Source: Candidatus Rokuibacteriota bacterium (GTDB taxonomy: Bacteria; Methylomirabilota; Methylomirabilia; Rokubacteriales; CSP1-6). Taken from it: a DNA stretch of 64,000 nt. A program made the position numbers and the translations under genes. Of the stretch, positions 22,858-36,209 are shown in pieces. Position 1 is the first letter of the stretch; each line of letters begins with the position of its first letter. The DNA lies in the NCBI GenBank assembly GCA_044869815.1, contig JBIOXS010000097.1:9969-73968 (forward strand). Direction: 5' to 3'. A model generated the notes under the pieces. The model worked only from the letters and a program-made list of their open reading frames with translations, was not told where the DNA came from and did no database searches.

Positions 22858-23904
22858 TTATCGCGGCTGCGGGTTGGCGTTGGCCCAGACGATGATTACG
22901 AGCACGCCATCCGCGTGGCGGGGCCCGCCGATCACGGCGGGATTTCCGCGCGCGGCCTGGATCTCGGTCGTGACCTCGGTGACGTTGCCGCGCAGCAGCC
23001 GAACCCGCATGCGCACGGTGTCGCCGCTCACGCTTTCCGGCGTCACCTCGAGTATCCGATCGCCGGGAACCGACCAACGCTCCTGGGAGCCGATCGGCAC
23101 TTCGGCGCGATACCGCTCGAGCGACGTGAACTCCTGGTAGCCCGTGAGCTGTCGAAGGCGCGGCAGAAACTTCTGCAGGCGTTCGTCGGGCGTCGCGTCC
23201 GGCGCGAGCTTCAGCGAGGCCGAGGTGGGCGGCTTGTCCGTCGCCAGCAGCACCCGGGCGCCGAAACGCACGACCTGCTGCGCGTGCAGCAACGCCGGCG
23301 CCGTCGCCACGAGGATGGCGAGCAGGAGCATGAGCAGCGGGCCCAGGGCCGAGCGCAAGCGGCGCCGCGCGTTGTGGAGGCGGGACATGACCGTGCCCAT
23401 CGGGATCTCCAGCACGTCAGCGATCTCCTTGTACGAGAGGCCTTCGATATCGCTCAGCACGATGATGTCGCGATGCTGCGCGGACAGCGTCGCCAGCGCC
23501 TGCATGATCCGCTCGCGGTCCTGGGCGGAGGCGGCCGCCTCGTCCGGCGCCTGCTCGCCGGCCGGCCTGTCGACCATGACCCGCTCCCAGTCCTCCTCGG
23601 GGACACGCTCCGTCCCGAACGCCCGCCCGCGGGCGGCGCGGGCGCGCGCCCGATCGGAGGCGACGTTCATCACGATCCTGAACAGCCAGGTATAGAATGC
23701 CGACTGACCGCGGAACGCGGGCAGCGCCTGGTAGGCGCGGATGAAGGCCTCCTGTGCGACGTCCCACGCGTCCTCCCGGTCACGCAACACGTTGTAGGCC
23801 AGACGCCACACGCGCTGCCGGTACTTTTCCACCAGCGGCTCGAAGGCCGCGACGTCGCCCTTGCGGCATCGCTCGACGAGCGCAGCATCGTCCTCGGCGT
23901 TCAC
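22858..23904 (-). CDS. ECF sigma-70 factor fused to a transmembrane helix and a ~140-aa extracytoplasmic domain
   Basis: ORF 22858..23904 (348 aa, one frame, no internal stop). Sigma2: FEPLVEKYRQRVWRLAYNVLRDREDAWDVAQEAFIRAY. Sigma4: LSYKEIADVLEIPMGTVMSRLHNARRRLR. These are followed directly by LGPLLMLLLAILVATAPALL and a beta-rich domain of unknown family. Confidence 0.85.
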   Translation of the reverse strand: MNAEDDAALVERCRKGDVAAFEPLVEKYRQRVWRLAYNVLRDREDAWDVAQEAFIRAYQALPAFRGQSAFYTWLFRIVMNVASDRARARAARGRAFGTERVPEEDWERVMVDRPAGEQAPDEAAASAQDRERIMQALATLSAQHRDIIVLSDIEGLSYKEIADVLEIPMGTVMSRLHNARRRLRSALGPLLMLLLAILVATAPALLHAQQVVRFGARVLLATDKPPTSASLKLAPDATPDERLQKFLPRLRQLTGYQEFTSLERYRAEVPIGSQERWSVPGDRILEVTPESVSGDTVRMRVRLLRGNVTEVTTEIQAARGNPAVIGGPRHADGVLVIIVWANANPQPR

Positions 23905-23953
23905 CGGACTAGCCTAACCCGGCCTCGGAGGTTAGACGCGACAAGGGCCGGAC

Positions 23954-24418
23954 TTATTTGGCGGCGCGGCGTCCCCGCAGCATGAGGAGCGCGTCCAGGC
24001 CGAGCAGGTAGCTCTGGGCGCCGAACCCGGAGATCTGCCCCCGGGTGGCGGCGGCGATGACCGACTGACGGCGGAACTCGTCACGTGCATGGATGTTCGA
24101 GAGGTGGACCTCGACGACCGGCAGGTCGATGGCCGCCACCGCGTCGCGGAGGGCAATCGAGTAGTGGGTGAAGGCGCCGGGGTTGAAGACGATCCCGAAG
24201 AAGCCATCCTTGCGGGCGCTCTGCAGCCAGTCGATCAGCTGGCCCTCGTGATTCGACTGTCGGCTCTCCACGTGGATGCCCAGCTTGCGTCCGCGCTCCC
24301 GCACCAGGCGGTCGACTTCCGCGAGCGTCATGCGTCCATAGACTCCGGGCTCTCGCGTGCCGAGCAGATTGAGATTCGGCCCATGCAGCACGAGCGCCCC
24401 GGCCGGCCCGGGTGTCAA
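23954..24418 (-). CDS. aroQ: 3-dehydroquinate dehydratase, type II
   Basis: C-terminal 154 aa of ORF 23954..25249, from TTG 24418. Motifs: [43 protein letters not shown]. Confidence 0.9.
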
Positions 24419-25161
24419 TGCTGAAGATACTGCGAGAACAACCAGTCGACGGCGATGAAGAAGAGCAGCCCGCCGAAGACCGTATAGGCGAGGCTCGGCT
24501 GATCGTCCTCGCGGTTCACCTCGGGAATGAGATCGGAGGCGGCGACGTAGATCGTCACGCCCGCCGACAGCGCCAGCGCGTACGCGACATGCGAGGTCGC
24601 GAAGAGGCCGGTCAGGAGCGCGCCCATCAGGGTGAGCACTCCCAGCGTCGTGCCCGCGCCGAGGGCGGCCGTCCGGGAGTGGCCGCCCGCGAGCATGATG
24701 GAGGCGATGGTGAACCCCTCGGGCAGCTTGTGGAGGAGCACGGCGATGAAGATCACCGCGCCCAGGGCCGAGCTGACCATGAATCCGGCCGCGATGGCCA
24801 CGCCGTCGAAGAGGGTGTGGACGCCGAGACCGACGAGCGCCAGCCAGCCGGCCGAGGGCCGCAGCAGCGCCTCGTGATGGATCTCCTCCCCGAAATGGAA
24901 GTGCGGCGCCACGGTGTGCTCGAACAGATGGATCCCGAAGTAGCCGAGCACGACGAAGACGAAGGCGTGGGGGACGTGCACGCTCTCCGGGAGCATCCTG
25001 ACGAAGGCGGCGGCCAGCATGAAGCCGGCGCCGGCGGCCACGAAGTACCGCAGGCGGGCGTGACTGGGCTTGTGGGCGGTGGTGACGATGGCGGCGCCGG
25101 CGACGTCCGCCGCAGCAGCGACGGCCGCGAACGCCAGGTATGCTAACATTGGCGCGAGCAT
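24415..25161 (-). CDS. ZIP-family divalent metal transporter (ZupT-like)
   Basis: Residues 63-310 of ORF 24415..25347, from ATG 25161 (alternative 25149). Polytopic membrane protein with [15 protein letters not shown] and a His-rich loop [11 protein letters not shown]. Confidence 0.85.
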
Positions 25162-25164
25162 AGC

Positions 25165-26862
25165 ATGGCCAACGGAGCCCGTTCCCGTCTCCTTGGCGAG
25201 ATCCTCGTCGCCGAAGGACTGACGAGCCCCGACGCCGTCGAGCGCGCACTCGCGCGCCAGCGGACGACCGGGGAGCTCATCGGCCAGGCGCTCGTCGCTC
25301 TCGGCGTCGTCACTCAGGACGAGGTCCTGCGCGCGCTCGCCACTCAACAGGATCTGCCGTTCCTGCCGCGTGACGAGATGCCGTCCGCGCTGCCGGTGCT
25401 CAAGAACCTGTCGGCGAAGTACCTGCGGACCTATGCCGTGTGTCCGGTGAGCGTCGAGGGCGGCCTGATGACCGTCGCCACCTCCGACCCTCGGAACCCT
25501 GTCGTCGTGGACGACCTGCGCCAGACGACCGGCCTCAGCGTCAAGCTCGTCATCAGCTCACCGGAGGCGATCACGGAGGCGATCGATCGGACCTACGACG
25601 GGGCCAACGCCTCGGCACTGCAGCGCATCGTCGAGGGCATGGACGATGAGCGCGGCGGCGAAGGCGACGAGGACGTCAGCCATCTGCGCGACATGGCCTT
25701 CGAGGCGCCGGTGGTACGGCTGGTCAATCTGCTGGTGGAGAACGCGATCACCGCCGAGGCCTCGGACATCCACATCGAGCCGTTCGAGGACACGCTGCGG
25801 ATCCGCTATCGCATCGACGGCATCCTGTACGACCAGGAGGCGCCGCCGCGGCGTCTGCAGGCCGCCGTCACCTCGCGGATCAAGATCATGGCCGAGATGA
25901 ACATCGCCGAGCGGCGCCTGCCGCAGGACGGTCGCATCCGCGTGAACCTACACGGCACGCGGGTCGACATCCGCGTGTCCACGATGCCGACGGTGCACGG
26001 CGAATCGATCGTCATGCGGCTCCTGCAGCGCTCGAGCGTCTTCCTGCCGCTCGACAAGCTCGGCTTCCCGGCCGACACGCTGAAGCGCTTCGAGTCGCTG
26101 ATCAAGCGCCCGCACGGCATCATTCTCGTCACCGGGCCCACCGGCTCGGGCAAGACGACCACGCTCTACGGCGCCCTCGACAAGATCAACTCGCCCGACC
26201 GCAAGATCATCACCGTCGAGGATCCCGTCGAGTACCAGCTCAAGGGCGTGAACCAGATCCCGGTGAAGCCGAAGATCGGCCTCACCTTCGCCACCGGGCT
26301 GCGCCACATCGTCCGCCAGGACCCCGACGTCATCCTCGTCGGCGAGATCCGCGATCTGGAGACAGCCGAGATCGCCATCCAGGCCTCGCTGACCGGTCAC
26401 CTCGTCTTCTCGACCCTGCACACGAACGACGCCCCGGCCGCCATCACGCGCCTGCAAGATATGGGGGTCGAGCCCTACCTGGTCGCCTCCGTGCTCGAGG
26501 CGGTGCTCGCGCAGCGACTCGTACGCCGGATCTGCGGCGCCTGCCGCGTCCAGGACACGCCGAACGCGGCCGATCTCGACGCGCTCGGGGTGACGGCGCC
26601 CGCGGGCACGCGGCTGTTCCGTGGCAAGGGCTGCGAGGAGTGTCGCGGCACCGGCTACCGCGGCCGGATGGGGATCTACGAGCTATTCCCCATCACCGAG
26701 GACGCGCGCAGCCTGGTACTCCGGCGCGCGGCCGCGCGCGACATCCGGCACTACGCGATCTCGGCCGGCATGGTGACGCTGCGGATGGACGGCTGGCGCC
26801 GGGCGTGCGAGGGGCTCACGACGATCGAGGAGATCCTGCGCGTGACCCAGGAAGACGCCTGA
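25165..26862 (+). CDS. gspE: Type II secretion / type IV pilus assembly ATPase
   Basis: ORF 25165..26862. Walker [11 protein letters not shown], Walker B ILVGEIRD, His box [12 protein letters not shown], and tetracysteine CGACRV...[13 protein letters not shown]-terminal T2SSE_N/MshEN-like helices. Confidence 0.93.
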
Positions 26863-26866
26863 GGCG

Positions 26867-28078
26867 ATGCCGGTCTTCGTCTACAAAGCCGCGGATCGTC
26901 GCGGCCAGACGGTGGATGGCGTCATGGAGGCGGCGGACGCTCGGGCGGTGGTCGAGCGACTCCACAAGGAAGCCTACTACCCCATCCGGGTGGCCCCTCA
27001 CGGCGAGCGCAGCGGCTTTCTCTCGCTCGGCGTGTCGTCGCGCATCCGGCAGCGCGACCTCCTCGCCCTGACCCAGCAACTCGCCACCCTGTTCGAGGCC
27101 GGCCTGCCGCTCGACCGCGCGCTCTCGATCCTGCAAGAGCTCGCCGACGGCGCGCGCGTGAAGGCGATCGTGAGCGATCTGCTGCACAGCGTTCGCGGCG
27201 GCGCGTCGTTCAGCGAGGCGCTCGCCAAGCATCATCCGCGACCGTTCTCCCGCCTCTACATCAACATGGTGCGGGCGGGCGAAAAGGGCGGTGTGCTCGA
27301 GGTCTCGCTGCGACGGCTGGCGGAATTCCTCGAGGCCCGGGCCGCCTTCAACGAGGCGGTGCTCTCGGCGCTGGCCTACCCGCTCGTCATCACCACCGTC
27401 GGCGCCGGCGCCATTGTCTTCCTGATGACCTTCGTCATCCCGCGCTTCGCCTCCATCTTCCAGGACCTGGGCCAGACGATCCCCCTGCCGACCCAGATCT
27501 TGCTGAGCATCAGCGCGGGACTGCAGACGTACTGGTGGGTCGGCGCCCTCATCGCGCTCGTCGCCATCCTGGCCTGGCGTGTGTGGACGGCCAACCCCGA
27601 GGGACGGCGCGCCGCGGACCAGACACTGCTGGGGCTGCCCCTGATCGGCCCGCTCACGATGAAGGTGGAGACCGCGCGCTTTGCCCGCACGCTCGGCACC
27701 ATGCTGCGCTCCGGCGTGCCCGTGCTCGGGGCCATGGGCGTCGTCGGCGACATGATGTCGAACCAGGCGGTCGGGTTGGCCGTCTCGCGGCTCGCCGAGG
27801 GCGTCAAGCGCGGTGGCACCATCGCCGCCGGCATGCAGCAGCACGGTGCCTTTCCCGCGCTGGCCGTTCACATGGTGCGTGTGGGCGAGGAGACGGGCCG
27901 GCTCGAAGAGATGCTGCTGAAGGTGGCGGACACCTTCGAGACGGACGTCCGCACGGATCTCAAGCGCGTGCTCGGGCTGCTCGAGCCGGCGATCATCCTG
28001 GCCATGGGGGTCCTCGTGGCGTTCATCGTGGTCGCGATGCTGCTCGCCATCTTCTCGATCAACGAGATGCCGCTGTGA
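26867..28078 (+). CDS. gspF: Type II secretion inner-membrane platform protein
   Basis: ORF 26867..28078 (403 aa). Two GspF/PilC repeats and three predicted TM segments. Motif LPLDRALSIL. Confidence 0.9.
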   Translation: MPVFVYKAADRRGQTVDGVMEAADARAVVERLHKEAYYPIRVAPHGERSGFLSLGVSSRIRQRDLLALTQQLATLFEAGLPLDRALSILQELADGARVKAIVSDLLHSVRGGASFSEALAKHHPRPFSRLYINMVRAGEKGGVLEVSLRRLAEFLEARAAFNEAVLSALAYPLVITTVGAGAIVFLMTFVIPRFASIFQDLGQTIPLPTQILLSISAGLQTYWWVGALIALVAILAWRVWTANPEGRRAADQTLLGLPLIGPLTMKVETARFARTLGTMLRSGVPVLGAMGVVGDMMSNQAVGLAVSRLAEGVKRGGTIAAGMQQHGAFPALAVHMVRVGEETGRLEEMLLKVADTFETDVRTDLKRVLGLLEPAIILAMGVLVAFIVVAMLLAIFSINEMPL

Positions 28079-28518
28079 GGCCCCGGCGCCTCCGCCTCCG
28101 CTCCGACCGCGGCTTCACGCTCATCGAGCTGCTCGTCGTGATCATCGTGCTGGGCTTGCTGGTCGGTCTCGTCGGCCCGCGTTTGTTCCAGAACGTCGGG
28201 AAATCCAAGCAGGCCGCGGCCAAGGCGCAGATCGAGCTCTTCGGCGCCGCCCTGGACCAGTACCGACTCGACGTCGGCTCCTATCCGAACGGGTCGCAGG
28301 GACTGGAGGCGCTCCAGAAGAATCCGAACGTCCAGAACTGGAACGGGCCCTACCTCAAGAAATCGGTGCCGAAGGATCCATGGGGTGAGGCGTACAAGTA
28401 CCGGTGCTGCCCGGGCCAGTTCGGCGACTACGACATCTGGTCCGAGGGCGCCGACAAGACGCCCGGTGGCGAGGGCGAGAACGCGGACGTCGTCTCGTGG
28501 GATGTGGAGAAGCGCTAG
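28075..28518 (+). CDS. gspG: Major pseudopilin
   Basis: C-terminal 147 aa of ORF 27535..28518, from GTG 28075 (GTGA overlap with gspF). Prepilin motif G|FTLIELLVVI. Motifs: KAQIELFGAALDQYRLD and PKDPWGEAYKY. Confidence 0.9.
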   Translation: MRPRRLRLRSDRGFTLIELLVVIIVLGLLVGLVGPRLFQNVGKSKQAAAKAQIELFGAALDQYRLDVGSYPNGSQGLEALQKNPNVQNWNGPYLKKSVPKDPWGEAYKYRCCPGQFGDYDIWSEGADKTPGGEGENADVVSWDVEKR

Positions 28519-28948
28519 TCGCGGCTTCACGCTCCTCGAGCTGATCGTCACGCTGTTCGTGATCGTGTTGACGATCGGGCTCGCCGTGCCCGTCGTCGGC
28601 CGCAGCTCGAGCGCGATCCGCGCGCGGGCCGACGTGGCCGGGTTCTCGGCCGTCCTGCGCCACGCCCGCGAGCGCGCGATCACCAGTCGCCGAACCCATG
28701 CCGTCGTGATCGATCCCACCGCGCGCAAGATGACCGTGTTCGCCGGCGGCGCGGACGGCGACGTCAAGGAAACGCGCGCGCTGCCGGAGCGACTCACCGT
28801 GCAGGCCACACCGCCGCCGGCGCTCACCGTGCGCTTCGAGCCCGAGGGAACCTCCTCGGGCGCCGACTACCGCGTGACCGCGGGCGACGTCGTCTATCGC
28901 GTCACCGTCGATCCGGTCACCGGCCGCGTCAAGAACACCAAGCTATGA
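28502..28948 (+). CDS. gspH: Minor pseudopilin (GspH-like by position and size)
   Basis: Residues 40-187 of ORF 28385..28948. MWRSASRG|FTLLELIVTLFV prepilin N-terminus. Confidence 0.65.
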   Translation: MWRSASRGFTLLELIVTLFVIVLTIGLAVPVVGRSSSAIRARADVAGFSAVLRHARERAITSRRTHAVVIDPTARKMTVFAGGADGDVKETRALPERLTVQATPPPALTVRFEPEGTSSGADYRVTAGDVVYRVTVDPVTGRVKNTKL

Positions 28949-29361
28949 CGCGCCCGAGCCTCGCTCCTCGCGGCGGCGGATTCACGTTGCTCGAGGTTCT
29001 CGTGGCGCTGGCGATCTTGAGCTTCGCCATCGTGGTTTCGATCCAGGCCTTCGCGGGTGGACTCAGGCTCCTGAAGCTCTCGGGGGAGCATCAGGAAGCG
29101 ATGCTGATCGCGGATCAGAAGGCGCGAGAGATCGTTTCGCCGACATCGGGCGGCGTGGAAAGCGGCACCGAAGGGGCCTATACGTGGGAGCGCGAGGTGA
29201 AGATCGTGGCCACGCCGGACCTCGACGTGGAAGGCCGCGTGGTGAGGTGGCGCGTCTGGGAGGTCGACGTGCGCGTGCGCTGGGGTGATCGCCGGCAGGT
29301 CTCGGTGGCGACGTTGCGCACCGTTGCCGGCGAGGGCGACCGCACGAGGCAGCGACCATGA
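28945..29361 (+). CDS. gspI: Minor pseudopilin (GspI-like)
   Basis: ORF 28945..29361. ...PRGGG|FTLLEVLVALAIL. The size (138 aa) and position fit GspI. Confidence 0.65.
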   Translation: MTRPSLAPRGGGFTLLEVLVALAILSFAIVVSIQAFAGGLRLLKLSGEHQEAMLIADQKAREIVSPTSGGVESGTEGAYTWEREVKIVATPDLDVEGRVVRWRVWEVDVRVRWGDRRQVSVATLRTVAGEGDRTRQRP

Positions 29362-29972
29362 GGCGCTCGCGCGGCTTCACGCTGCTCGAGGTCCTGATCG
29401 CCATCTCGATCGTCGGCGCCCTGCTCGTCATCGCCTTCGGTGGCCTGCGGGTGGCCATCGCCGCGTGGCGCCAGGGAGAGACGCGGGTGGAGGCGCACCA
29501 GCACATCCGCGCGGTGGCCTACACGCTCTCGCGCGCGCTCGGCGCGGCCTATCCGTACCGCGCCACCAAGGGCACGTCGCCGGAGGTGGTCGTGCTGTTC
29601 GACGGCACCGAGAAGCGGTTGGAGTTCGTCACGCACTCCCCGCCGCTGCCGCTGCAGGCGCCGATCGCCTTCACCGCCGTCGGCATCGCCCTCGAGGAGG
29701 GCGACGAGCCCGGACTCGTCGTCCGCGAGCGAGCGCTCCCCAACCGCGATCCGTTCACGGAAGGCACCGTCGTGATGCGCGACCCGAGCGTCACCTCCCT
29801 GGCCTTGAGCTTTCTCAGCGAGGACGGCAACTGGGTGGACACCTGGAACGGGCAGGACACCAAGACCATCCCGCGGTCGATCCAGCTGAAGCTCGGGGTG
29901 ACCCTCAACGGTCGTACTCAGGCCATGCCGCCGATCACCGTCACCCTGCGCGCCGCCCCGGTGCCGAGATGA
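29358..29972 (+). CDS. gspJ: Minor pseudopilin (GspJ-like)
   Basis: ORF 29358..29972. MRRSRG|FTLLEVLIAISIV. 204 aa. Confidence 0.65.
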   Translation: MRRSRGFTLLEVLIAISIVGALLVIAFGGLRVAIAAWRQGETRVEAHQHIRAVAYTLSRALGAAYPYRATKGTSPEVVVLFDGTEKRLEFVTHSPPLPLQAPIAFTAVGIALEEGDEPGLVVRERALPNRDPFTEGTVVMRDPSVTSLALSFLSEDGNWVDTWNGQDTKTIPRSIQLKLGVTLNGRTQAMPPITVTLRAAPVPR

Positions 29973-30934
29973 GCGCCACCAACCGTCCCCGCACGACCAG
30001 CCGTCGGTACAGATGCGACCGCCGCGGGTTCGCGCTCATCGCGGTGCTGCTCGTACTGGCCATGGTGGGCGTCATCGGCGCGGAGTTCGCGTATTCGATG
30101 CGGCTCGAGGCCACGTCGGTGCGATCGTTCAAGGACAACCTCATCGCCGGTCACCTCGCCGAGGCCGCCGTCGAGCAGGCCATACGCGAGATCGCCGGCG
30201 ACGTGGCCTTCGTCGCCACCGACGACGACGGCGCCCTCACGTTCTACACGCGCGATCGGGTCGCGCTGCCGCGCCTGGCCCGCTCGAACGTGCCCCTCGG
30301 CGGCGGGCACTTCACCTACCGGGTCACCGACGAGGAGTCGCGGCTGAACCTCAACGCAGCGACACCGGACCGCGTGGAGCGTCTGCTGCAAGCGCTCGGC
30401 GTCGACAAGATCGAGCGCGACGCGATCAACGACAGCCTTCAGGACTGGCGCGACGCCAACGAGGAGCACCGGATCAACGGCGCCGAGAGCGACGACACGT
30501 ATCTGAAGCTGCCGCTGCCGTACCGGTCCAAGAACGCGGCTCTCGACTCGATCACCGAGTTGCTCCAGATCAAGGGCGTGACCTCGGCGATCTTTCACGG
30601 CACCGCCGGCAAGCCGGGCCTCGCCGCCTACGTCACGGTGAAGAGTCCGGGGCAGGTCAATCTGAACACCGCCCCCTGCCTCGTGCTGAAGGCGCTCGGC
30701 TTCGGCGATGCCGAATGCACCGCCATCGACCAGGCCCGACGTGGCGCTCCCTACACCACCGTGCCCGGACAGTTCGGCGGACGCGGCCTTGGCACGACGA
30801 CGCGCACGTTCCGCGTCGAGGCGGAGGGAATCATCGGCGGCGAGGTGCGCGCGCGACTCACCGCGATCCTGCAGCGACGCGCCGACGCGGCCAACGACAG
30901 CCTCGACGTGCTCGAATGGTCGGGCGTGCGATGA
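29969..30934 (+). CDS. gspK: Minor pseudopilin GspK-like (no Glu+5)
   Basis: Residues 229-549 of ORF 29285..30934, from ATG 29969 (ATGA overlap). ...DRRG|FALIAVLLVL lacks the E5 residue, as expected for GspK. Motifs: ESRLNLN, DWRDANEE, GQVNLNTAP. Confidence 0.8.
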   Translation: MSATNRPRTTSRRYRCDRRGFALIAVLLVLAMVGVIGAEFAYSMRLEATSVRSFKDNLIAGHLAEAAVEQAIREIAGDVAFVATDDDGALTFYTRDRVALPRLARSNVPLGGGHFTYRVTDEESRLNLNAATPDRVERLLQALGVDKIERDAINDSLQDWRDANEEHRINGAESDDTYLKLPLPYRSKNAALDSITELLQIKGVTSAIFHGTAGKPGLAAYVTVKSPGQVNLNTAPCLVLKALGFGDAECTAIDQARRGAPYTTVPGQFGGRGLGTTTRTFRVEAEGIIGGEVRARLTAILQRRADAANDSLDVLEWSGVR

Positions 30935-32472
30935 CCGGCAAAGTTTTGCAGATCGCGGGGTTATCTCGTACCCTACACGCCGTGAACTTCAGGCCGATCA
31001 GGCTTTCGGTGGCGCTGCTCGGCGACCGTCTCGCCGTTGCGGTCCTCAGCGGCTCTCGCGTCGAAGCCTTCACGGTCGATGCCGAGAGTCCTGCGGTCGC
31101 GCTGCGCGCTGAGCTCGAGGCGCGCCGACTGCCCGCGCGTGCCGCATCGCTGGGCGTGGCGCGGAGCGCCGTGTCCGTCAAGCAGATCGAGCTTCCGGCC
31201 GTCGCCGGCGACACGCGCGAGATGGTCGGCTTCGAGCTCGAGCGCCATCTGCCCTTCCCCGCCGAGGACGCGACCTTCGACTTCGTCGCCGTGCCCCCCG
31301 AGCCCGCCGCCGAGCGCGGCGGGCCCGTCGGACAGCGCGTGCTGATCACCGCGGCCGACCGGCGCGTCGTCGACGCCGCGCTGCGCCTCGCCGACGAAGC
31401 GCGTCTCCGCCCGCTATCGCTCACCGTCGCCGTGCACAACCTGCCCGTGCTGGCGCGGCTCCGTCGCGACCGACGCGTGGCGTGGGTCCACCGCGCCGGC
31501 GAGGCGATCGATCTGCTCCTGCTCCAGGGCGAGGCGCTGCTGCTGAGCCGGAGCCTGCCGCCGGGCGAGGACGCGGCGATCGCCGAGGAAATCCAGCGCT
31601 CGATCGCCGCCGTCCGCTGGCGGGACTGCAACGCGATCTGGCTCTCCGGCGACGAGCCGCCCGACGGGCTCGGCTCGGCTCCGCTGACATCGCTGGGCGT
31701 GCCGGTCACGGAGCCGGCATGGACGCCGGTCGCCCGGCAACGCCTCGCGGGACTTGCGCCCGAGCAGCGCGGCGCGCTCCAGCTGGCAGTGGCGCTCGTC
31801 TCGAGCCGCGGCGCGCAGCCGCTCGAGCTGTTGCCGGCCACCGTCCGACCCCGGCGGCTCAGCCGCCCGCAGGCGATCACGCTCGGCATGACGGCGGTCA
31901 CGACCGTGCTCGCCGTTCTCGCGCTGCTGGCGCCAGGCTGGCGCGAGCAACGTCATCTCAAGCGCGTGAACGCGGAGATCGCGCGCCTCGAGCCGACCGT
32001 GAAGGAGGCCGATCGCGTGGTGCGCGAGCTCGAGCGCAAGCGCAAGCTGATCGCCACCGTCGACAGTATCGAGTCGACGGGCATCCGGCCGCTGCCCGTG
32101 CTCCGCGACCTGACCGAGCTCCTGCCCGGCGACGCGTGGCTCACCACGGTGTCGCTCGACTCGAAGGGCGTCGAGCTGACGGGCGCGGCGTCGGCGGCGA
32201 GCACGCTCATTCCCCTCCTCGAGAACTCATCGCGGCTCGAGCGCGTGGAGTTCTCATCGCCGGTCACCCGCGGCCGCGACAACAAGGAGCAGTTCCGGAT
32301 CCGCGCCGCGTGGGAGCCCGGCGGCGGAGGCGTGCCGTCTGCGGCCACATCAGCCGTGCCCGGCGCAGGGACCGTCACGCCGCCTGCGCCCGGAGCTCCG
32401 CCCGCGACGTCCGGCGTCCCCGCGGCGGCGCCGCCGCGCCGTCCGGTTCAGCCCGGAGCCGCGCGACAGTGA
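30931..32472 (+). CDS. gspL: GspL-like assembly protein built as a PilM-like cytoplasmic domain + TM + PilN-like periplasmic domain
   Basis: Residues 307-819 of ORF 30013..32472, from ATG 30931 (ATGA overlap). FELERHLPFPAEDATFDF is PilM/GspL-like. It is followed by TM ITLGMTAVTTVLAVLALLA, a coiled coil, a PilN-like ...LTTVSLDSKGVELTGAA segment and a Pro-rich tail. Confidence 0.75.
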   Translation: MTGKVLQIAGLSRTLHAVNFRPIRLSVALLGDRLAVAVLSGSRVEAFTVDAESPAVALRAELEARRLPARAASLGVARSAVSVKQIELPAVAGDTREMVGFELERHLPFPAEDATFDFVAVPPEPAAERGGPVGQRVLITAADRRVVDAALRLADEARLRPLSLTVAVHNLPVLARLRRDRRVAWVHRAGEAIDLLLLQGEALLLSRSLPPGEDAAIAEEIQRSIAAVRWRDCNAIWLSGDEPPDGLGSAPLTSLGVPVTEPAWTPVARQRLAGLAPEQRGALQLAVALVSSRGAQPLELLPATVRPRRLSRPQAITLGMTAVTTVLAVLALLAPGWREQRHLKRVNAEIARLEPTVKEADRVVRELERKRKLIATVDSIESTGIRPLPVLRDLTELLPGDAWLTTVSLDSKGVELTGAASAASTLIPLLENSSRLERVEFSSPVTRGRDNKEQFRIRAAWEPGGGGVPSAATSAVPGAGTVTPPAPGAPPATSGVPAAAPPRRPVQPGAARQ

Positions 32473-33038
32473 TCGCCAATCTTTCCCCACGCGAACGGAC
32501 CATCGTCCTGGCCGGGGGCGGCTTGCTCCTCGTGGTCCTCGCCTGGCTGTTCGTGGTCGCTCCCCTGCGCGATCGCAGCCGCGCGGCCGCCGACCTCGTG
32601 CCCGAGCGGGAGCGCGCCCTCACGCGCCGGCTCGACCTGCTCGCTCGACGCAATCACATCACGACGGAGCTCGAGGCCGCCACCGGGCGCGTCGATCGCC
32701 TGACGTCGCGGCTGCTGACCGCCGCGGCCCCGGCCGTTGCGGCCTCCGAGCTGCAGAAGCTCGTGAAGGACATGGCGGCGGAGGCGACGACGGAGATCCG
32801 CAGCGAGCGTATCCTGCCGCCCGAGGAGCGGGGCGAGCTGCTCGAGATCCCCGTCGAGATCGCCGTCTCGGCGGAGATCCGCCAGCTGGTCGACCTCCTC
32901 GCCCGGGTCGAGGGCTCGCAAAAGCTCTTGACCGTCAAAGACCTGCGGGTCAGAGTAGTCAACGTCAGCCAGCCGCGGGAATTGCTGGCGACTTTGACCG
33001 TTTCGGGGTTCATCCTGCCGAGCAAAGCTAAAGTGTGA
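32469..33038 (+). CDS. gspM: GspM/PilO-like assembly protein
   Basis: C-terminal 189 aa of ORF 31482..33038, from GTG 32469 (GTGA overlap). Single N-terminal TM, coiled coil, ferredoxin-like C-terminus. Confidence 0.7.
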   Translation: MIANLSPRERTIVLAGGGLLLVVLAWLFVVAPLRDRSRAAADLVPERERALTRRLDLLARRNHITTELEAATGRVDRLTSRLLTAAAPAVAASELQKLVKDMAAEATTEIRSERILPPEERGELLEIPVEIAVSAEIRQLVDLLARVEGSQKLLTVKDLRVRVVNVSQPRELLATLTVSGFILPSKAKV

Positions 33039-33802
33039 TGCCAAGACGATTCGTAGCCTTGAACGTCGTGCTCGCCGCGCTATCCGCGGTGTTGATCGCC
33101 TACATCGTGCGCCAGCTGGTGATGCCGACGCCGTTGCCGGTGGGCGGCCGCCGCGCCGCCGCTACCACGGTCGTGCCGGCCGCCGTCGAGACGCCGCGGG
33201 CGCCGGCAGGGGCCTACACGGTCGTCGCCGCACGGAATCTCTTCAGTCCCGCCCGGACCGAGTCGCCGACGAGCACGACCACGGCTGCCGCCTCGCCGCT
33301 CGTGAGGCCCAACCTCTTCGGCATCGTGGTGCGCGACGGCGGCTCCATCGCGTATCTGGAGGACCCGGCCACCAAGCGCGTCGTCGGCTACCGCGTGGGC
33401 GACAAGGTCGTCGGCGGCACCGTGCAGACGATCAAGGCCGACAGCATCGTGATCGAGCGCCCGGAAGGTCCCCTCGACGTCCGGCTTCGCGATCCCGGCA
33501 AGCCGCGCACGGCGGCGATGCCGGGCCAGCCGGGCGCGCCGCAGATTGGCGCGATGCCGCCGGGCACGCTGCAGCCGGGACAACCGGGGGCGGTGTTACC
33601 CGGGGTCATTCCGCCGGCGGCATCGGTGCCAGCGCCGCAGGTGGCCCAGCCTCAAGTCCCGCAGCCCGCGCAGCCGCCTGGCGTGGTCGCGCCGGGCACG
33701 CAGTCGCCGATGGTCGTGCCGCCGGCGGGCGCTCGCCGCCCATTGCCGCCGAACCTGCTACGTCGTATGCCTCCGGGCATGGGCGATGCGCCGCAGCAGT
33801 AA
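33035..33802 (+). CDS. gspC: GspC/PilP-like protein with HR domain and Pro/Gln-rich tail (no PDZ)
   Basis: ORF 33035..33802. N-terminal TM, then RNLFSP, then LFGIVVRDGGSIAYLEDPATKRVVGYRVGDKVVGGTVQTIKADSIVIERPEG (HR/PilP-like beta domain), then about 100 aa of P/Q/G-rich sequence. Confidence 0.7.
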   Translation: MMPRRFVALNVVLAALSAVLIAYIVRQLVMPTPLPVGGRRAAATTVVPAAVETPRAPAGAYTVVAARNLFSPARTESPTSTTTAAASPLVRPNLFGIVVRDGGSIAYLEDPATKRVVGYRVGDKVVGGTVQTIKADSIVIERPEGPLDVRLRDPGKPRTAAMPGQPGAPQIGAMPPGTLQPGQPGAVLPGVIPPAASVPAPQVAQPQVPQPAQPPGVVAPGTQSPMVVPPAGARRPLPPNLLRRMPPGMGDAPQQ

Positions 33803-36209
33803 TGTAAGCGGCTTCATCGCGAGCGTCGTTCTTCTCACCGCCGCCGGGTGCGCGACCACGCGCTCCGAGCCCACGGCCACACCACCGACGATCCCCGTGC
33901 CGGCGCCGACCGTCACCGTGCAGACCGAGCCGCCGGCGCCACCGATGCCGCCGGTGTCGATCGGGCCGCGCGCGCCCGAGCCACCGCGCCCCGAGCCGCC
34001 CGCCACGCCGGCGCCGGCCCCGCCGCCGCCGAAGCCTCCCGTCACCCGGCCGTCGATCGCGCCGCCGACCGCGCCCGGTGCGAGCGGGCGCTTCATCGTG
34101 CTGAACTTCGACAACGCCGATATCGAGACGGTGATTCACGCCGCCAGCGAGATCGTCGGCTTCAACTATGTCCTGTCCCCCGATGTGCGGGGCAAGGTCA
34201 CTGTGCAGACCTCCGGCCGCATCCCGCAGGACGACGTGTTCGGCGTGCTGCTCGGCATTCTCGAAGTCCACGGCTTCACCGCCGTGAAGGCGGGCAATCT
34301 CTACAAGATCGTGCGACTGGAGGGCGCGCGCGAGCGCGCGGTACCGACCATCGTGGGCGATCTCGCCGTCGATACGCGCAATGCCGACGAGATCATCACC
34401 CAGATCGTCCCGATCCGGTACGCCTCCGTCAACGATCTCGGCGTGCTGTTACGGCCGTTCGTCTCCTCGCGCGGCACGCTGGTGGCGAACCGCGAGACCA
34501 ACGTCCTCGTCATCACCGATGCCGTGGCCAACATCCGTCGCGTGCTCGACATCGTGAAGCTCGTCGACGTCCAGGTCTCGCTGGACGAGGTACAGATCAT
34601 TCCCATTGCGTTCGCGGACGCCACCGAGGTGGCCGCCATCCTGAACCAGCTCTTTGCCGGCGGTCGACTGCGCGCCGCCGCCGCGCCGGCCGCCCCGACG
34701 CCGGTGCCGGGGCAGGCGGTGGCTCCTGGCGGGGCCGTGACGACGGAGCGGCCCCCGCTGGTGATCGCCGAGCGGCGGTCGAACTCCATCGTCGTCCACG
34801 GCCGGCGATCGGAGATCGAGACCATCCGCCGCATCCTCACGCAGCTCGACATCAACGTGACGGGCGGCCGCCGCGTGTTCATCTACTTCGCCGAGAACGC
34901 GAAGGCGAAGGACCTCGCGGCCACGCTCAATGCCATCTACGGGGCCAAGGAGACCGTGGCCACGGCGGCGCCGACACCGCCCACGACGCCGCGGACACCG
35001 GGCCAGCCGCCACCACCACCGCCGCCGCCGCCCACGACCGCGCCCGGCGGCCCCGTCGGCGGGCCGAGCGGCCTGGCCGAGCTCGGCCTGGCCGAGGGCC
35101 AGTTCCGCTTCATCGCCGACGAGACGACGAACTCCGTCATCGTCACCACCACGCCGCGCCAGTGGACCGACATCGAGCCGACGGTCAAGCAGCTCGACAA
35201 GATGCCGCGCCAGGTGCTGATCGAAGTGCTGGTGGCGGAGATCACGCTCCAGGACGACACGAAGCTCGGCGTCGACTGGGCGCTGAAGACGGGCAGCTTC
35301 CGCGTCGTCAGCCAGTCGGTCACGACCTCCACCAGCGGCACGCCCGGCATCACGGCACCGACCGGACTGGACGCCCTCGGCGCCGCCACCGCGATCGCCG
35401 GGCTGCCGGGCGCGGGACTCACCGCCTTCGCGTTCGCCACCGACAAGTTCTTCGCGATGCTCAACGCGCTGGCCAGCGAGAACCGGGTGAACGTGATCTC
35501 GAACCCACACGTCATGACATCGGAGAACAAGAAGGCTATCGTCAACGTCTCGGCATCGATCCCGATCGTCACCAGTCAGCAGACGGGCACGCTCAGCTCA
35601 CCCGCCCAGGTGGCGGGCACGACGAGCACGGTGGCCACCACGGGCAGCGTGAACCAGACGGTGGAGTACCGCGACGCCGGCGTGGTCCTGACCGTCACCC
35701 CGCGGATCGGCGAGCGCGGCACCGTGGCCCTCGACGTCAAGCAGGAGGTCAACGACATCGGCGATCCGGAGCCGCCTACCGGCTCGCGTCGGATCAACAA
35801 GCGGGAGGCCGAGACGTCGGTGGTCCTGCTGAACAACCAGACGCTCGTGATGGCGGGTCTGATCCAGGAGCGGCGGGGCGCTTCCGACCGCGGCATCCCC
35901 GTCCTCAGCCGGATCCCGTTCCTCGGGTTCCTCTTCGGGTTCAAGGAGCGGACAGTGGAGAAGCGGGAACTGATCCTGCTCATCACGCCGCGGGTCGTGG
36001 GCACGCCACTCGACGCCCAGCGCATCACCGACCAGATGCGCCGCGCCACGCCGGAGCTGGACGATGCCGTGCGCCACGCTCCCCGCGCGCCGAGCACGAC
36101 CCCGATGTCGACGCCCGCGACGCCACCGTCCGGCGTTGTCGTCCCGTCGATTCCGGAGCCGACACCCAGCGGCGTCCCGCCCATTCCGCCGGCTCCGCCG
36201 CAGCGCTGA
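33786..36209 (+). CDS. gspD: Secretin (outer-membrane channel), predicted lipoprotein
   Basis: Residues 81-887 of ORF 33546..36209. Lipobox VLLTAAGC, a Pro-rich linker, N-domains, and the secretin core ...NVISNPHVMTSENKKAIVNV...IPVLSRIPFLGFLFG. Confidence 0.92.
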   Translation: MRRSSNVSGFIASVVLLTAAGCATTRSEPTATPPTIPVPAPTVTVQTEPPAPPMPPVSIGPRAPEPPRPEPPATPAPAPPPPKPPVTRPSIAPPTAPGASGRFIVLNFDNADIETVIHAASEIVGFNYVLSPDVRGKVTVQTSGRIPQDDVFGVLLGILEVHGFTAVKAGNLYKIVRLEGARERAVPTIVGDLAVDTRNADEIITQIVPIRYASVNDLGVLLRPFVSSRGTLVANRETNVLVITDAVANIRRVLDIVKLVDVQVSLDEVQIIPIAFADATEVAAILNQLFAGGRLRAAAAPAAPTPVPGQAVAPGGAVTTERPPLVIAERRSNSIVVHGRRSEIETIRRILTQLDINVTGGRRVFIYFAENAKAKDLAATLNAIYGAKETVATAAPTPPTTPRTPGQPPPPPPPPPTTAPGGPVGGPSGLAELGLAEGQFRFIADETTNSVIVTTTPRQWTDIEPTVKQLDKMPRQVLIEVLVAEITLQDDTKLGVDWALKTGSFRVVSQSVTTSTSGTPGITAPTGLDALGAATAIAGLPGAGLTAFAFATDKFFAMLNALASENRVNVISNPHVMTSENKKAIVNVSASIPIVTSQQTGTLSSPAQVAGTTSTVATTGSVNQTVEYRDAGVVLTVTPRIGERGTVALDVKQEVNDIGDPEPPTGSRRINKREAETSVVLLNNQTLVMAGLIQERRGASDRGIPVLSRIPFLGFLFGFKERTVEKRELILLITPRVVGTPLDAQRITDQMRRATPELDDAVRHAPRAPSTTPMSTPATPPSGVVVPSIPEPTPSGVPPIPPAPPQR

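Follow-up and report, generated by a model that had tools for sequence, protein, structure and literature searches.

Extracytoplasmic function (ECF) sigma factors that are themselves anchored in the membrane are already known or predicted in several groups, namely IutY/ECF243, ECF48, ECF52 and ECF53 (PMC8999054). IutY of Pseudomonas putida (ECF243) combines in one chain an N-terminal ECF sigma factor, a single membrane helix and a C-terminal part in the periplasm (PMC8999054), with a FecR-type anti-sigma domain between sigma region 4 (sigma4) and the membrane; it serves TonB-dependent cell-surface signalling and is activated by sequential proteolysis, in which Prc is the first protease and RseP the last (PMC8999054; PMC10202637). 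The actinobacterial ECF48, ECF52 and ECF53 proteins (e.g., SCO4117) possess a C-terminal extension that crosses the membrane with one or two helices and has an extracytoplasmic domain, and their proteolytic release is predicted (PMC8999054; PMC5826349); this extension holds a zinc-finger (ZAS-like) anti-sigma module and, reaching up to ~400 aa, proline-rich and carbohydrate-binding parts. In the characterised or reviewed ECF sigma factors tethered by a single helix, an anti-sigma module lies between sigma4 and the membrane (PMC8999054). Here we analyse a 64,000-nucleotide stretch of DNA (the window) from a Candidatus Rokuibacteriota bacterium (assembly GCA_044869815.1, contig JBIOXS010000097.1, positions 9,969 to 73,968), in which one gene (22858..23904, minus strand) encodes, in a single 348-codon open reading frame (ORF), an ECF sigma factor, a signal-peptide-like anchor and an exported domain. 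This fusion shares the one-chain layout of IutY, and the stepwise proteolysis that we propose for it likewise ends with an RseP-like protease, but it has no anti-sigma domain, its anchor is signal-peptide-like and its periplasmic domain is unrelated. It likewise resembles the actinobacterial proteins in its extension and in its predicted release, although the extension is just ~160 aa long and has no zinc finger, and the fusion comes from another phylum. What sets the fusion family apart is the lack of any anti-sigma module, the apparently still-cleavable signal peptide that serves as the tether, and a new exported domain. An earlier reading of the window made without database searches (the sequence-only reading) had considered a membrane-tethered ECF sigma factor with an unassigned periplasmic domain unusual; tethering as such is not, given the systems above, while the absence of an anti-sigma part and the signal-peptide-like anchor are. 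A literature search for descriptions of ECF sigma factors in Rokubacteria found no paper on the fusion family, and Rokubacteria are not mentioned in the main text of the ECF classification (Casas-Pastor et al., 2021).

The gene opens with a GTG start codon, ends with TAA and contains no internal stop. Sigma-70 region 2 (sigma2) occupies aa 24-90 (23635..23835, minus strand; Pfam PF04542 Sigma70_r2, E 1.7e-17) and region 4 aa 130-186 (23347..23517, minus strand; PF08281 and PF04545, Sigma70_r4_2 itself covering aa 130-183 with E 8e-17), while Sigma70_ECF (PF07638) spans aa 7-186. The protein has sigma2 and sigma4 alone and passes the superfamily cut-off (NCBIfam TIGR02937, sigma70-ECF, 116.7 bits vs a cut-off of 42.9), as do ECF (group 4) sigma-70 factors. 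Its nearest solved structures are AlgU (6in7), Escherichia coli RpoE (1or7) and SigW, and by these comparisons the sigma part reads as an RpoE/AlgU-like ECF sigma factor. It stays below the cut-off of every NCBIfam equivalog model, the best being an RpoE-like model and RpoE itself (NF008888, 154.5 vs 204 bits; TIGR02939, 153.2 vs 236.15). The likeness to the RpoE-RseA-RseB and AlgU-MucA-MucB systems lies in the sigma domain, which is nearest to AlgU and RpoE, and in a candidate regulon of envelope genes, but the fusion differs in having no RseA, in scoring 153 vs 236 bits at the RpoE equivalog cut-off, and in that neither an anti-sigma nor an RseB gene adjoins it. The sigma4 recognition helix GTVMSRL (G170-L176) is invariant in 117 sequences and leads straight into the hydrophobic segment. 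We considered Met173 as an internal start of a separate secreted protein and rejected it: this Met belongs to the invariant sigma4 motif GTVMSR, and it gives no evidence for an internal start because sigma factors encoded apart from the exported domain (the split operons described below) have it as well. The architecture proposed in the sequence-only reading, i.e., sigma2 and sigma4, a positive-inside hydrophobic helix and a beta-rich domain in one frame, is thus borne out by the ORF, the Pfam matches and hydropathy.

The hydrophobic segment (aa 186-208; 23281..23349, minus strand) is the sole one of the protein: nothing else exceeds a Kyte-Doolittle (KD) value of 1.6, and its mean is 2.34 over 19 residues. 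A transmembrane anchor had earlier been placed at roughly 23287-23346, which was correct to within a few bases. RRRLRS stands immediately before the segment, its core is ALGPLLMLLLAILVATA and its end region is P-A-L-L-H-A; by this layout it appears to be a signal anchor built like a Sec signal peptide. A signal peptidase I (SPase I) site is predicted at L-H-A / Q (aa 208/209, nt 23281/23280, within 23278..23289, minus strand), and the motif is family-wide. Across 114 family members the junction opens with three Lys/Arg, followed by a hydrophobic core with KD of at least 2.25 over 15 residues, and 28 residues (range 24-35) lead from the end of the recognition helix (GTVMSRLHNAR) to the first strand of the C-terminal domain. 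Proline occupies position -6 in 89 proteins and position -5 in 26 (~115 counts over 114 members). Every one of the 114 has A, L, V, S, T, I or G at position -3, and 113 have A, S or G at position -1; position -2 varies. All four sequence features of a Sec signal peptide of the SPase I type are thereby present, and they are conserved in 113-114 of the 114. A never-cut anchor would not need the conserved -1, -3 and -6 positions. The hydrophobic core of ~16 residues, which begins 2-4 residues after sigma4, is below the length of a typical stable membrane helix. The 28 residues from sigma4 to the predicted cut are too few to hold an anti-sigma domain, and Pfam detects none between sigma4 and the membrane segment (no FecR, zf-HC2 or RskA match); the FecR- or ZAS-type domain that precedes the membrane helix in fused sigma/anti-sigma ECF proteins is consequently missing. 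In the full-length AlphaFold2 (AF2) model (pLDDT 79.8, pTM 0.42), the last (recognition) helix of sigma4 and the membrane helix form one continuous helix (aa 169-206), and this model contains no confident packing between the sigma part and the C-terminal domain. A Gly-Pro pair marks the cytoplasmic end of the membrane helix in 104 of the 114 fused proteins. Substrates of site-2 proteases (S2P), such as RseP, need helix-destabilising residues.

The fusion is real and conserved. Independent soil-metagenome contigs, from sequencing runs of which one may be the source sample, cover positions 23150-23500 with 0 gaps and 0-2 substitutions, so the region in which the frame reads from sigma4 into the anchor withstood the sequence check. 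With aa 186-348 as a query, 588 homologous proteins were found; among the 120 listed, nearly all are ~345 aa long and carry sigma domains, and those bearing organism names come from Candidatus Rokubacteria or NC10. In a survey of 151 genomes of the phylum, nearly all those sampled from the family to which the window belongs, with 38 genera, gave a single-frame, full-length match, which settles in favour of the fusion whether relatives keep it or have a stop codon. In the sister family the sigma factor continues into open frames of 415-444 aa, and two of its proteins (P0134 and P0159) have a Pro-rich insert ahead of the same C-terminal domain; in the remaining families of the class the survey found sigma-domain paralogues only. 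Split matches occur in a few relatives (e.g., G126 and G133). The junction LGPLL is itself conserved among fused proteins. The fusion is near-universal in one uncultured lineage.

The exported domain (aa 209-348; 22861..23280, minus strand) has zero family matches in Pfam and NCBIfam, and neither do its standalone homologues. An AF2 model of the domain from a 29-sequence alignment was confident (mean pLDDT 88.4, pTM 0.80) and consists of eight long strands and one helix, in agreement with the ~140-aa beta-rich domain expected earlier. Structure prediction and fold search gave it no known fold: Foldseek against the Protein Data Bank (PDB) returned nothing at E<=1e-3, and the top matches, i.e., a designed beta protein, the InvG secretin and CRABP, were rejected as the fold with TM-scores of at most 0.46. 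The profile of alignment A3 matched nothing among PDB sequences, even at E 10. RseB or LolA did not come up, in keeping with the lack of a significant PDB fold match. The domain is well conserved (mean column identity 73%, 41 invariant columns in alignment A1), and the C-terminal extension contains no Cys residues; nor does it have the SnoaL, TPR or Cys-rich extensions of ECF41, ECF42, ECF56 and ECF238, whose extensions are cytoplasmic.

phmmer, run exhaustively against 1.84 billion representatives, yielded homologues of the exported domain in 183 representative clusters at E<=1e-3. The distant homologues are mostly proteins of ~150 aa in which an N-terminal signal peptide precedes the exported domain; a signal peptide was present in 47 of the 47 standalone homologues inspected, and these signal peptides align with the hydrophobic segment of the fusion. 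Gene neighbourhoods were informative for five standalone homologues. In all five an ECF sigma gene lies upstream of the domain gene, and in four an anti-sigma gene stands between them. Three of the loci (L011, L014 and L053) read ECF sigma factor, zf-HC2 anti-sigma factor and domain protein, with genes that overlap or abut; in the fourth (L013) the middle gene has no Pfam match but matches an NCBIfam anti-sigma model, and in the fifth (L009) the stop codon of the sigma gene overlaps the start of the domain gene, with no anti-sigma gene between. The arrangements form a series: sigma/anti-sigma/X, sigma/X and the sigma::X fusion, where X is the exported domain. Where all three genes are present, the exported-domain gene takes the third position, as RseB does in rpoE operons. 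The fusion shares with this so far unnamed family of exported partners the homologous domain, the preceding signal peptide and the link to an ECF sigma factor. Judging from these comparisons, the exported proteins tied to ECF sigma operons appear to be a newly defined family, present in many metagenomic lineages. The sequence-only reading could not place the domain in any family; this still holds for Pfam, NCBIfam and PDB, while the domain has now found its place among the ~150-aa exported proteins encoded after ECF sigma factors. Orthology of the sigma part itself to the split systems is not established, because the split-operon sigma factors are 35-46% identical to the fused one, which brings them no closer to it than the paralogues that the same genome encodes (up to 41%). 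Two further observations concern these homologues. The zf-HC2 anti-sigma factors of the split operons (L011:2174-2668, L013:5493-6011 and L014:1308-1850) have periplasmic tails of just ~50 aa with a conserved hydrophobic strand (TVIWV or KVIWIF) at the end, which could pair with the sheet of the domain protein encoded beside it. An 890-aa protein (P0156), in which the domain was matched in 10 stretches and which consists of tandem ~68-aa units, looks like a spurious repeat match rather than a relative.

Upstream of the fusion gene we found a conserved RpoE-type promoter motif, AAT-N16-GCGTCTAA (23932..23958, minus strand, running 23958-23932). It overlaps the stop codon of the preceding gene aroQ, and its -10 element ends 27 nt ahead of the GTG start. 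In 12 genomes of at least 5 genera AAT-N16-GCGTCTAA(C) is the sole shared upstream element, with variable flanks. We take the motif to resemble the RpoE type GAAC...TCTAA (GAAy...TCTAA), a further presumed likeness to the RpoE/AlgU systems. The exact motif gave 52 matches in 41 of 81 family genomes, vs 1 for the reversed control, and at least 33 of the 52 directly precede the fusion gene; the motif probably drives autoregulation of this gene. A 6-bp inverted repeat, CTAACC-N10-GGTTAG (23914-23935, minus strand), lies over the -10 element and the sigma gene's short leader; the other genera in the promoter-motif alignment do not conserve it.

In the own genome of the fusion, which is ~80% complete, the strict pattern matches exactly only at the fusion gene's own site, and the regulon was for this reason deduced from relatives. 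Exact motif sites elsewhere in the genomes of relatives (loci L054-L066 in G002, G099, G075, G068, G015, G035, G043, G021, G038, G157, G154 and G164) lie, in 13 of 13 cases, before same-strand start codons, with 4-45 nt from motif end to start. They precede HlyD-type membrane-fusion proteins in 3 genera (PF16576 confirmed for one), small exported Pro/Tyr/Trp-rich proteins of no family at 5 sites, and, at one site each, an LTXXQ (Spy/CpxP-like) protein (PF07813, 32.2 bits), an MMPL transporter, a DksA/TraR zinc-finger protein, another ECF sigma factor and an unclear small ORF. By their sequences these genes may be regarded as a candidate envelope regulon, which fits an autoregulated envelope-stress sigma factor. 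Looser patterns in the own genome retrieve mainly promoters of a paralogous ECF sigma factor on contig C14, with the canonical GAAC-N17-GGTCTAA, plus one site on contig C144. The C14 sites (7314 and 8744, plus strand) precede the paralogous ECF gene (36% identical) and a downstream gene for an exported 282-aa protein, and cross-talk between the fusion sigma factor and this RpoE-like paralogue is possible. The C144 site (43345, minus strand; GAAC-N18-CGCGTCTAA) precedes a gene for a 122-aa protein, the N-terminus of which looks like an export signal, possibly of the Tat type.

Taken together, we think it rather probable that the fusion gene encodes a membrane-tethered pro-sigma factor, which would be released by regulated cutting, by signal peptidase and then by a site-2 protease. 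The protein would insert with the sigma part in the cytoplasm and the exported domain in the periplasm, a topology suggested by the single hydrophobic segment with RRRLRS on its N-terminal side and by the signal peptides of the standalone homologues. In the tethered state the -35-binding helix of sigma4 would lie against the membrane, leaving the sigma factor unable to work with RNA polymerase. SPase I would then cut at site 1, between A208 and Q209, a step that may be gated by the folded exported domain or by a ligand bound to it. An RseP-like S2P would next cleave the remaining stub of sigma factor plus signal peptide, as happens with ordinary leftover signal peptides, and the freed sigma factor would activate a set of envelope genes as well as its own promoter. 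That the sigma factor is a working transcription factor is suggested by the conserved upstream promoter and by the envelope-gene sites in relatives. Both proteases have candidates in the own genome, which codes for an RseP-like M50 protease (242 bits) and a signal peptidase I (195 bits). The sequence-only reading had argued that a tethered sigma factor would need proteolytic release; this idea remains a matter of inference, although it is now better supported by the conserved SPase I motif, the continuous AF2 helix and the proteases of the genome.

Each of the proposed cuts has a precedent. RsiV and RsiP undergo site-1 cleavage by signal peptidase beside the membrane helix before S2P acts (PMC4183432; PMC8844934); in these sigmaV and sigmaP systems, unlike in the fusion, the cleaved protein is a separate anti-sigma factor, while in the fusion the sigma factor itself carries the SPase site. 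RseP and Eep cleave signal peptides, and S2P enzymes clear them (PMC10202637). IutY, a fused sigma/anti-sigma protein, is released by RseP after Prc has acted (PMC10202637; PMC8999054). Pro-sigmaK of Bacillus subtilis is also an inactive membrane-associated precursor freed by an S2P-family metalloprotease (cited in PMC10202637); it differs from the fusion in its short N-terminal pro-sequence, in being a group 3 sporulation sigma factor and in having no exported domain.

Several points weigh against regulated release. Every step after translation (membrane insertion, cleavage and release) is inferred. AF2 models the Gly-Pro region as an unbroken helix. The RseP cut could leave on sigma4 a hydrophobic tail that acts as a degradation tag and not as a means of activation, and the exported domain would be no sensor if signal peptidase cleaves constitutively. 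Moreover, the strict promoter pattern occurs just once in the own genome at its ~80% completeness, and with the same completeness an unlinked anti-sigma factor is possible. Going one step further, the sigma factor could literally serve as the cytoplasmic N-terminal part of a cleavable Sec signal peptide, with no anti-sigma protein at all and with activity set by export, SPase I and S2P clearance; we put this forward tentatively, as a possibility somewhat on the unlikely side. If true, envelope stress would be handled by a one-protein pathway that uses the machinery of signal-peptide processing as its signal transducer.

The same signal-peptide features would also suit a process without regulation. 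Possibly, though this seems to us unlikely, the segment is just a cleavable signal peptide with the sigma factor as its outsized N-terminal part, every molecule is cut by signal peptidase upon export and routine clearance frees the sigma factor, so that the output tracks Sec export and processing capacity, or merely supplies sigma factor and periplasmic protein 1:1, with no ligand sensing. The full signal-peptide anatomy, a ~16-residue core that is short for a stable membrane helix, the homology of the segment to real signal peptides of standalone proteins and the known clearance of signal peptides by S2P enzymes all agree with such constitutive, export-coupled processing. However, ungated release combined with positive autoregulation would run away unless otherwise limited, the exported domain is more conserved than a passenger needs (73% column identity, 41 invariant columns), and the split systems encode it within sigma/anti-sigma operons, a setting that leads one to expect a regulatory role. 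Membrane-bound one-component transcription activators, such as ToxR and CadC, exist, and the fusion could by analogy be active while tethered, recruiting RNA polymerase at the membrane while the periplasmic domain modulates it by conformation or oligomerisation, without proteolysis. The missing anti-sigma domain and the AF2 model, in which the C-terminal domain makes no inhibitory packing on the sigma part, would be in line with this, but the -35 recognition helix is 2-4 residues from the membrane helix, which leaves no room for the beta-flap or DNA, and conservation of the -1, -3 and -6 positions would be left unexplained; we therefore regard activity in the tethered state as quite improbable.

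Two other explanations carry still less weight in our view. C-terminal extensions are the second most common means of ECF regulation (PMC7826278), and the extension might accordingly be a cytoplasmic regulatory part that contacts the sigma domains directly, as in ECF41 and ECF42, with the hydrophobic stretch as a buried linker. This is hard to reconcile with a KD of at least 2.3 over 15-19 residues and the positive charges that precede them, with the signal peptides of 47 of 47 standalone homologues and with the lack of both a confident interdomain contact in AF2 and a SnoaL or TPR domain, and we consider it very improbable. Split versions in other lineages, such as the locus in which the sigma stop overlaps the start of its partner (L009), and the split matches in a few relatives (G126 and G133 among them) are what one might expect if the loss of a stop, or a frameshift from sequencing or assembly, had run a sigma gene and a secreted-protein gene together. 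The gap-free contigs, one frame kept in nearly all family genomes and across the sister family, and the conserved LGPLL junction exclude such an artefact for practical purposes, and its chance is in our estimate minute. Regulated release of a tethered pro-sigma factor by signal peptidase and S2P remains the explanation that we favour.

The genomic context may offer a hint as to what the exported domain might sense. The fusion gene closes a minus-strand run, ZIP transporter-aroQ-sigma, which is divergent from an 11-gene type II secretion system (T2SS) cluster. Directly upstream on the same strand, in the window and likewise in several relatives, is aroQ (23954..24430, minus strand), a type II 3-dehydroquinate dehydratase (PF01220, E 1.9e-57), and the downstream neighbour is a convergent CCG-domain gene; the neighbours named in the sequence-only reading, as well as its statement that no anti-sigma gene is adjacent, proved right. 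A 421-aa protein from a public collection (P0083) consists of the first two-thirds of AroQ followed by the fusion sigma factor from its residue 23; it is probably a frameshift or gene-call artefact, and it shows the aroQ-sigma gene order elsewhere. The block, 23954-25347 (minus strand) and 25165-36209 (plus strand), keeps its sigma-aroQ-ZIP vs T2SS spacing in at least 8 genera (relatives with the block: G002, G012, G013, G017, G021, G024 and G025), and in at least 8 genera the secretin gene is ~12 kb from the fusion gene on the same contig. The own genome holds one secretin and one copy of the exported domain. The proximity to the T2SS may reflect inherited gene order and not a functional link, and no T2SS was found near the split-operon domain genes in the L011, L013 and L014 contexts.

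The exported domain also shows a faint trace of secretin in its sequence. The Secretin model PF00263 matches the fusion with E 0.15 and 12.1 bits vs a cut-off of 27.5, and weak matches appear in only 3 of 48 family members; the domain is thus no member of the secretin family. Against the window's own secretin alone, hhalign gave a probability of 1.4%, which is not significant; against 15 aligned secretin domains of the phylum, the family profile reached a probability of 77.6% with a score of 36.4 over 49 columns, while 60 column-shuffled alignments stayed at or below 19.9 and the reversed alignment gave 19.9. The matching columns read L-x-V-T-P...V-x-h-x-V, then T-x-h...viGG. As far as these profiles indicate, the central four-strand meander of the exported domain genuinely resembles the middle hairpins of the secretin core at a local level, which is not family membership. 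Given the shared four-strand motif and the position ~12 kb from the T2SS secretin gene in at least 8 genera, the domain may monitor secretin or outer-membrane assembly, a role to which we attach little likelihood.

We herein describe a family in which a widespread uncultured soil lineage appears to rely on a direct join of sigma4, signal peptide and exported domain. If release by signal peptidase and S2P is true, the fusion would be a very small transmembrane signalling unit and possibly a compact part for synthetic biology. The promoter motif and the candidate envelope-stress targets are testable handles for Rokubacteria, which have no genetics.

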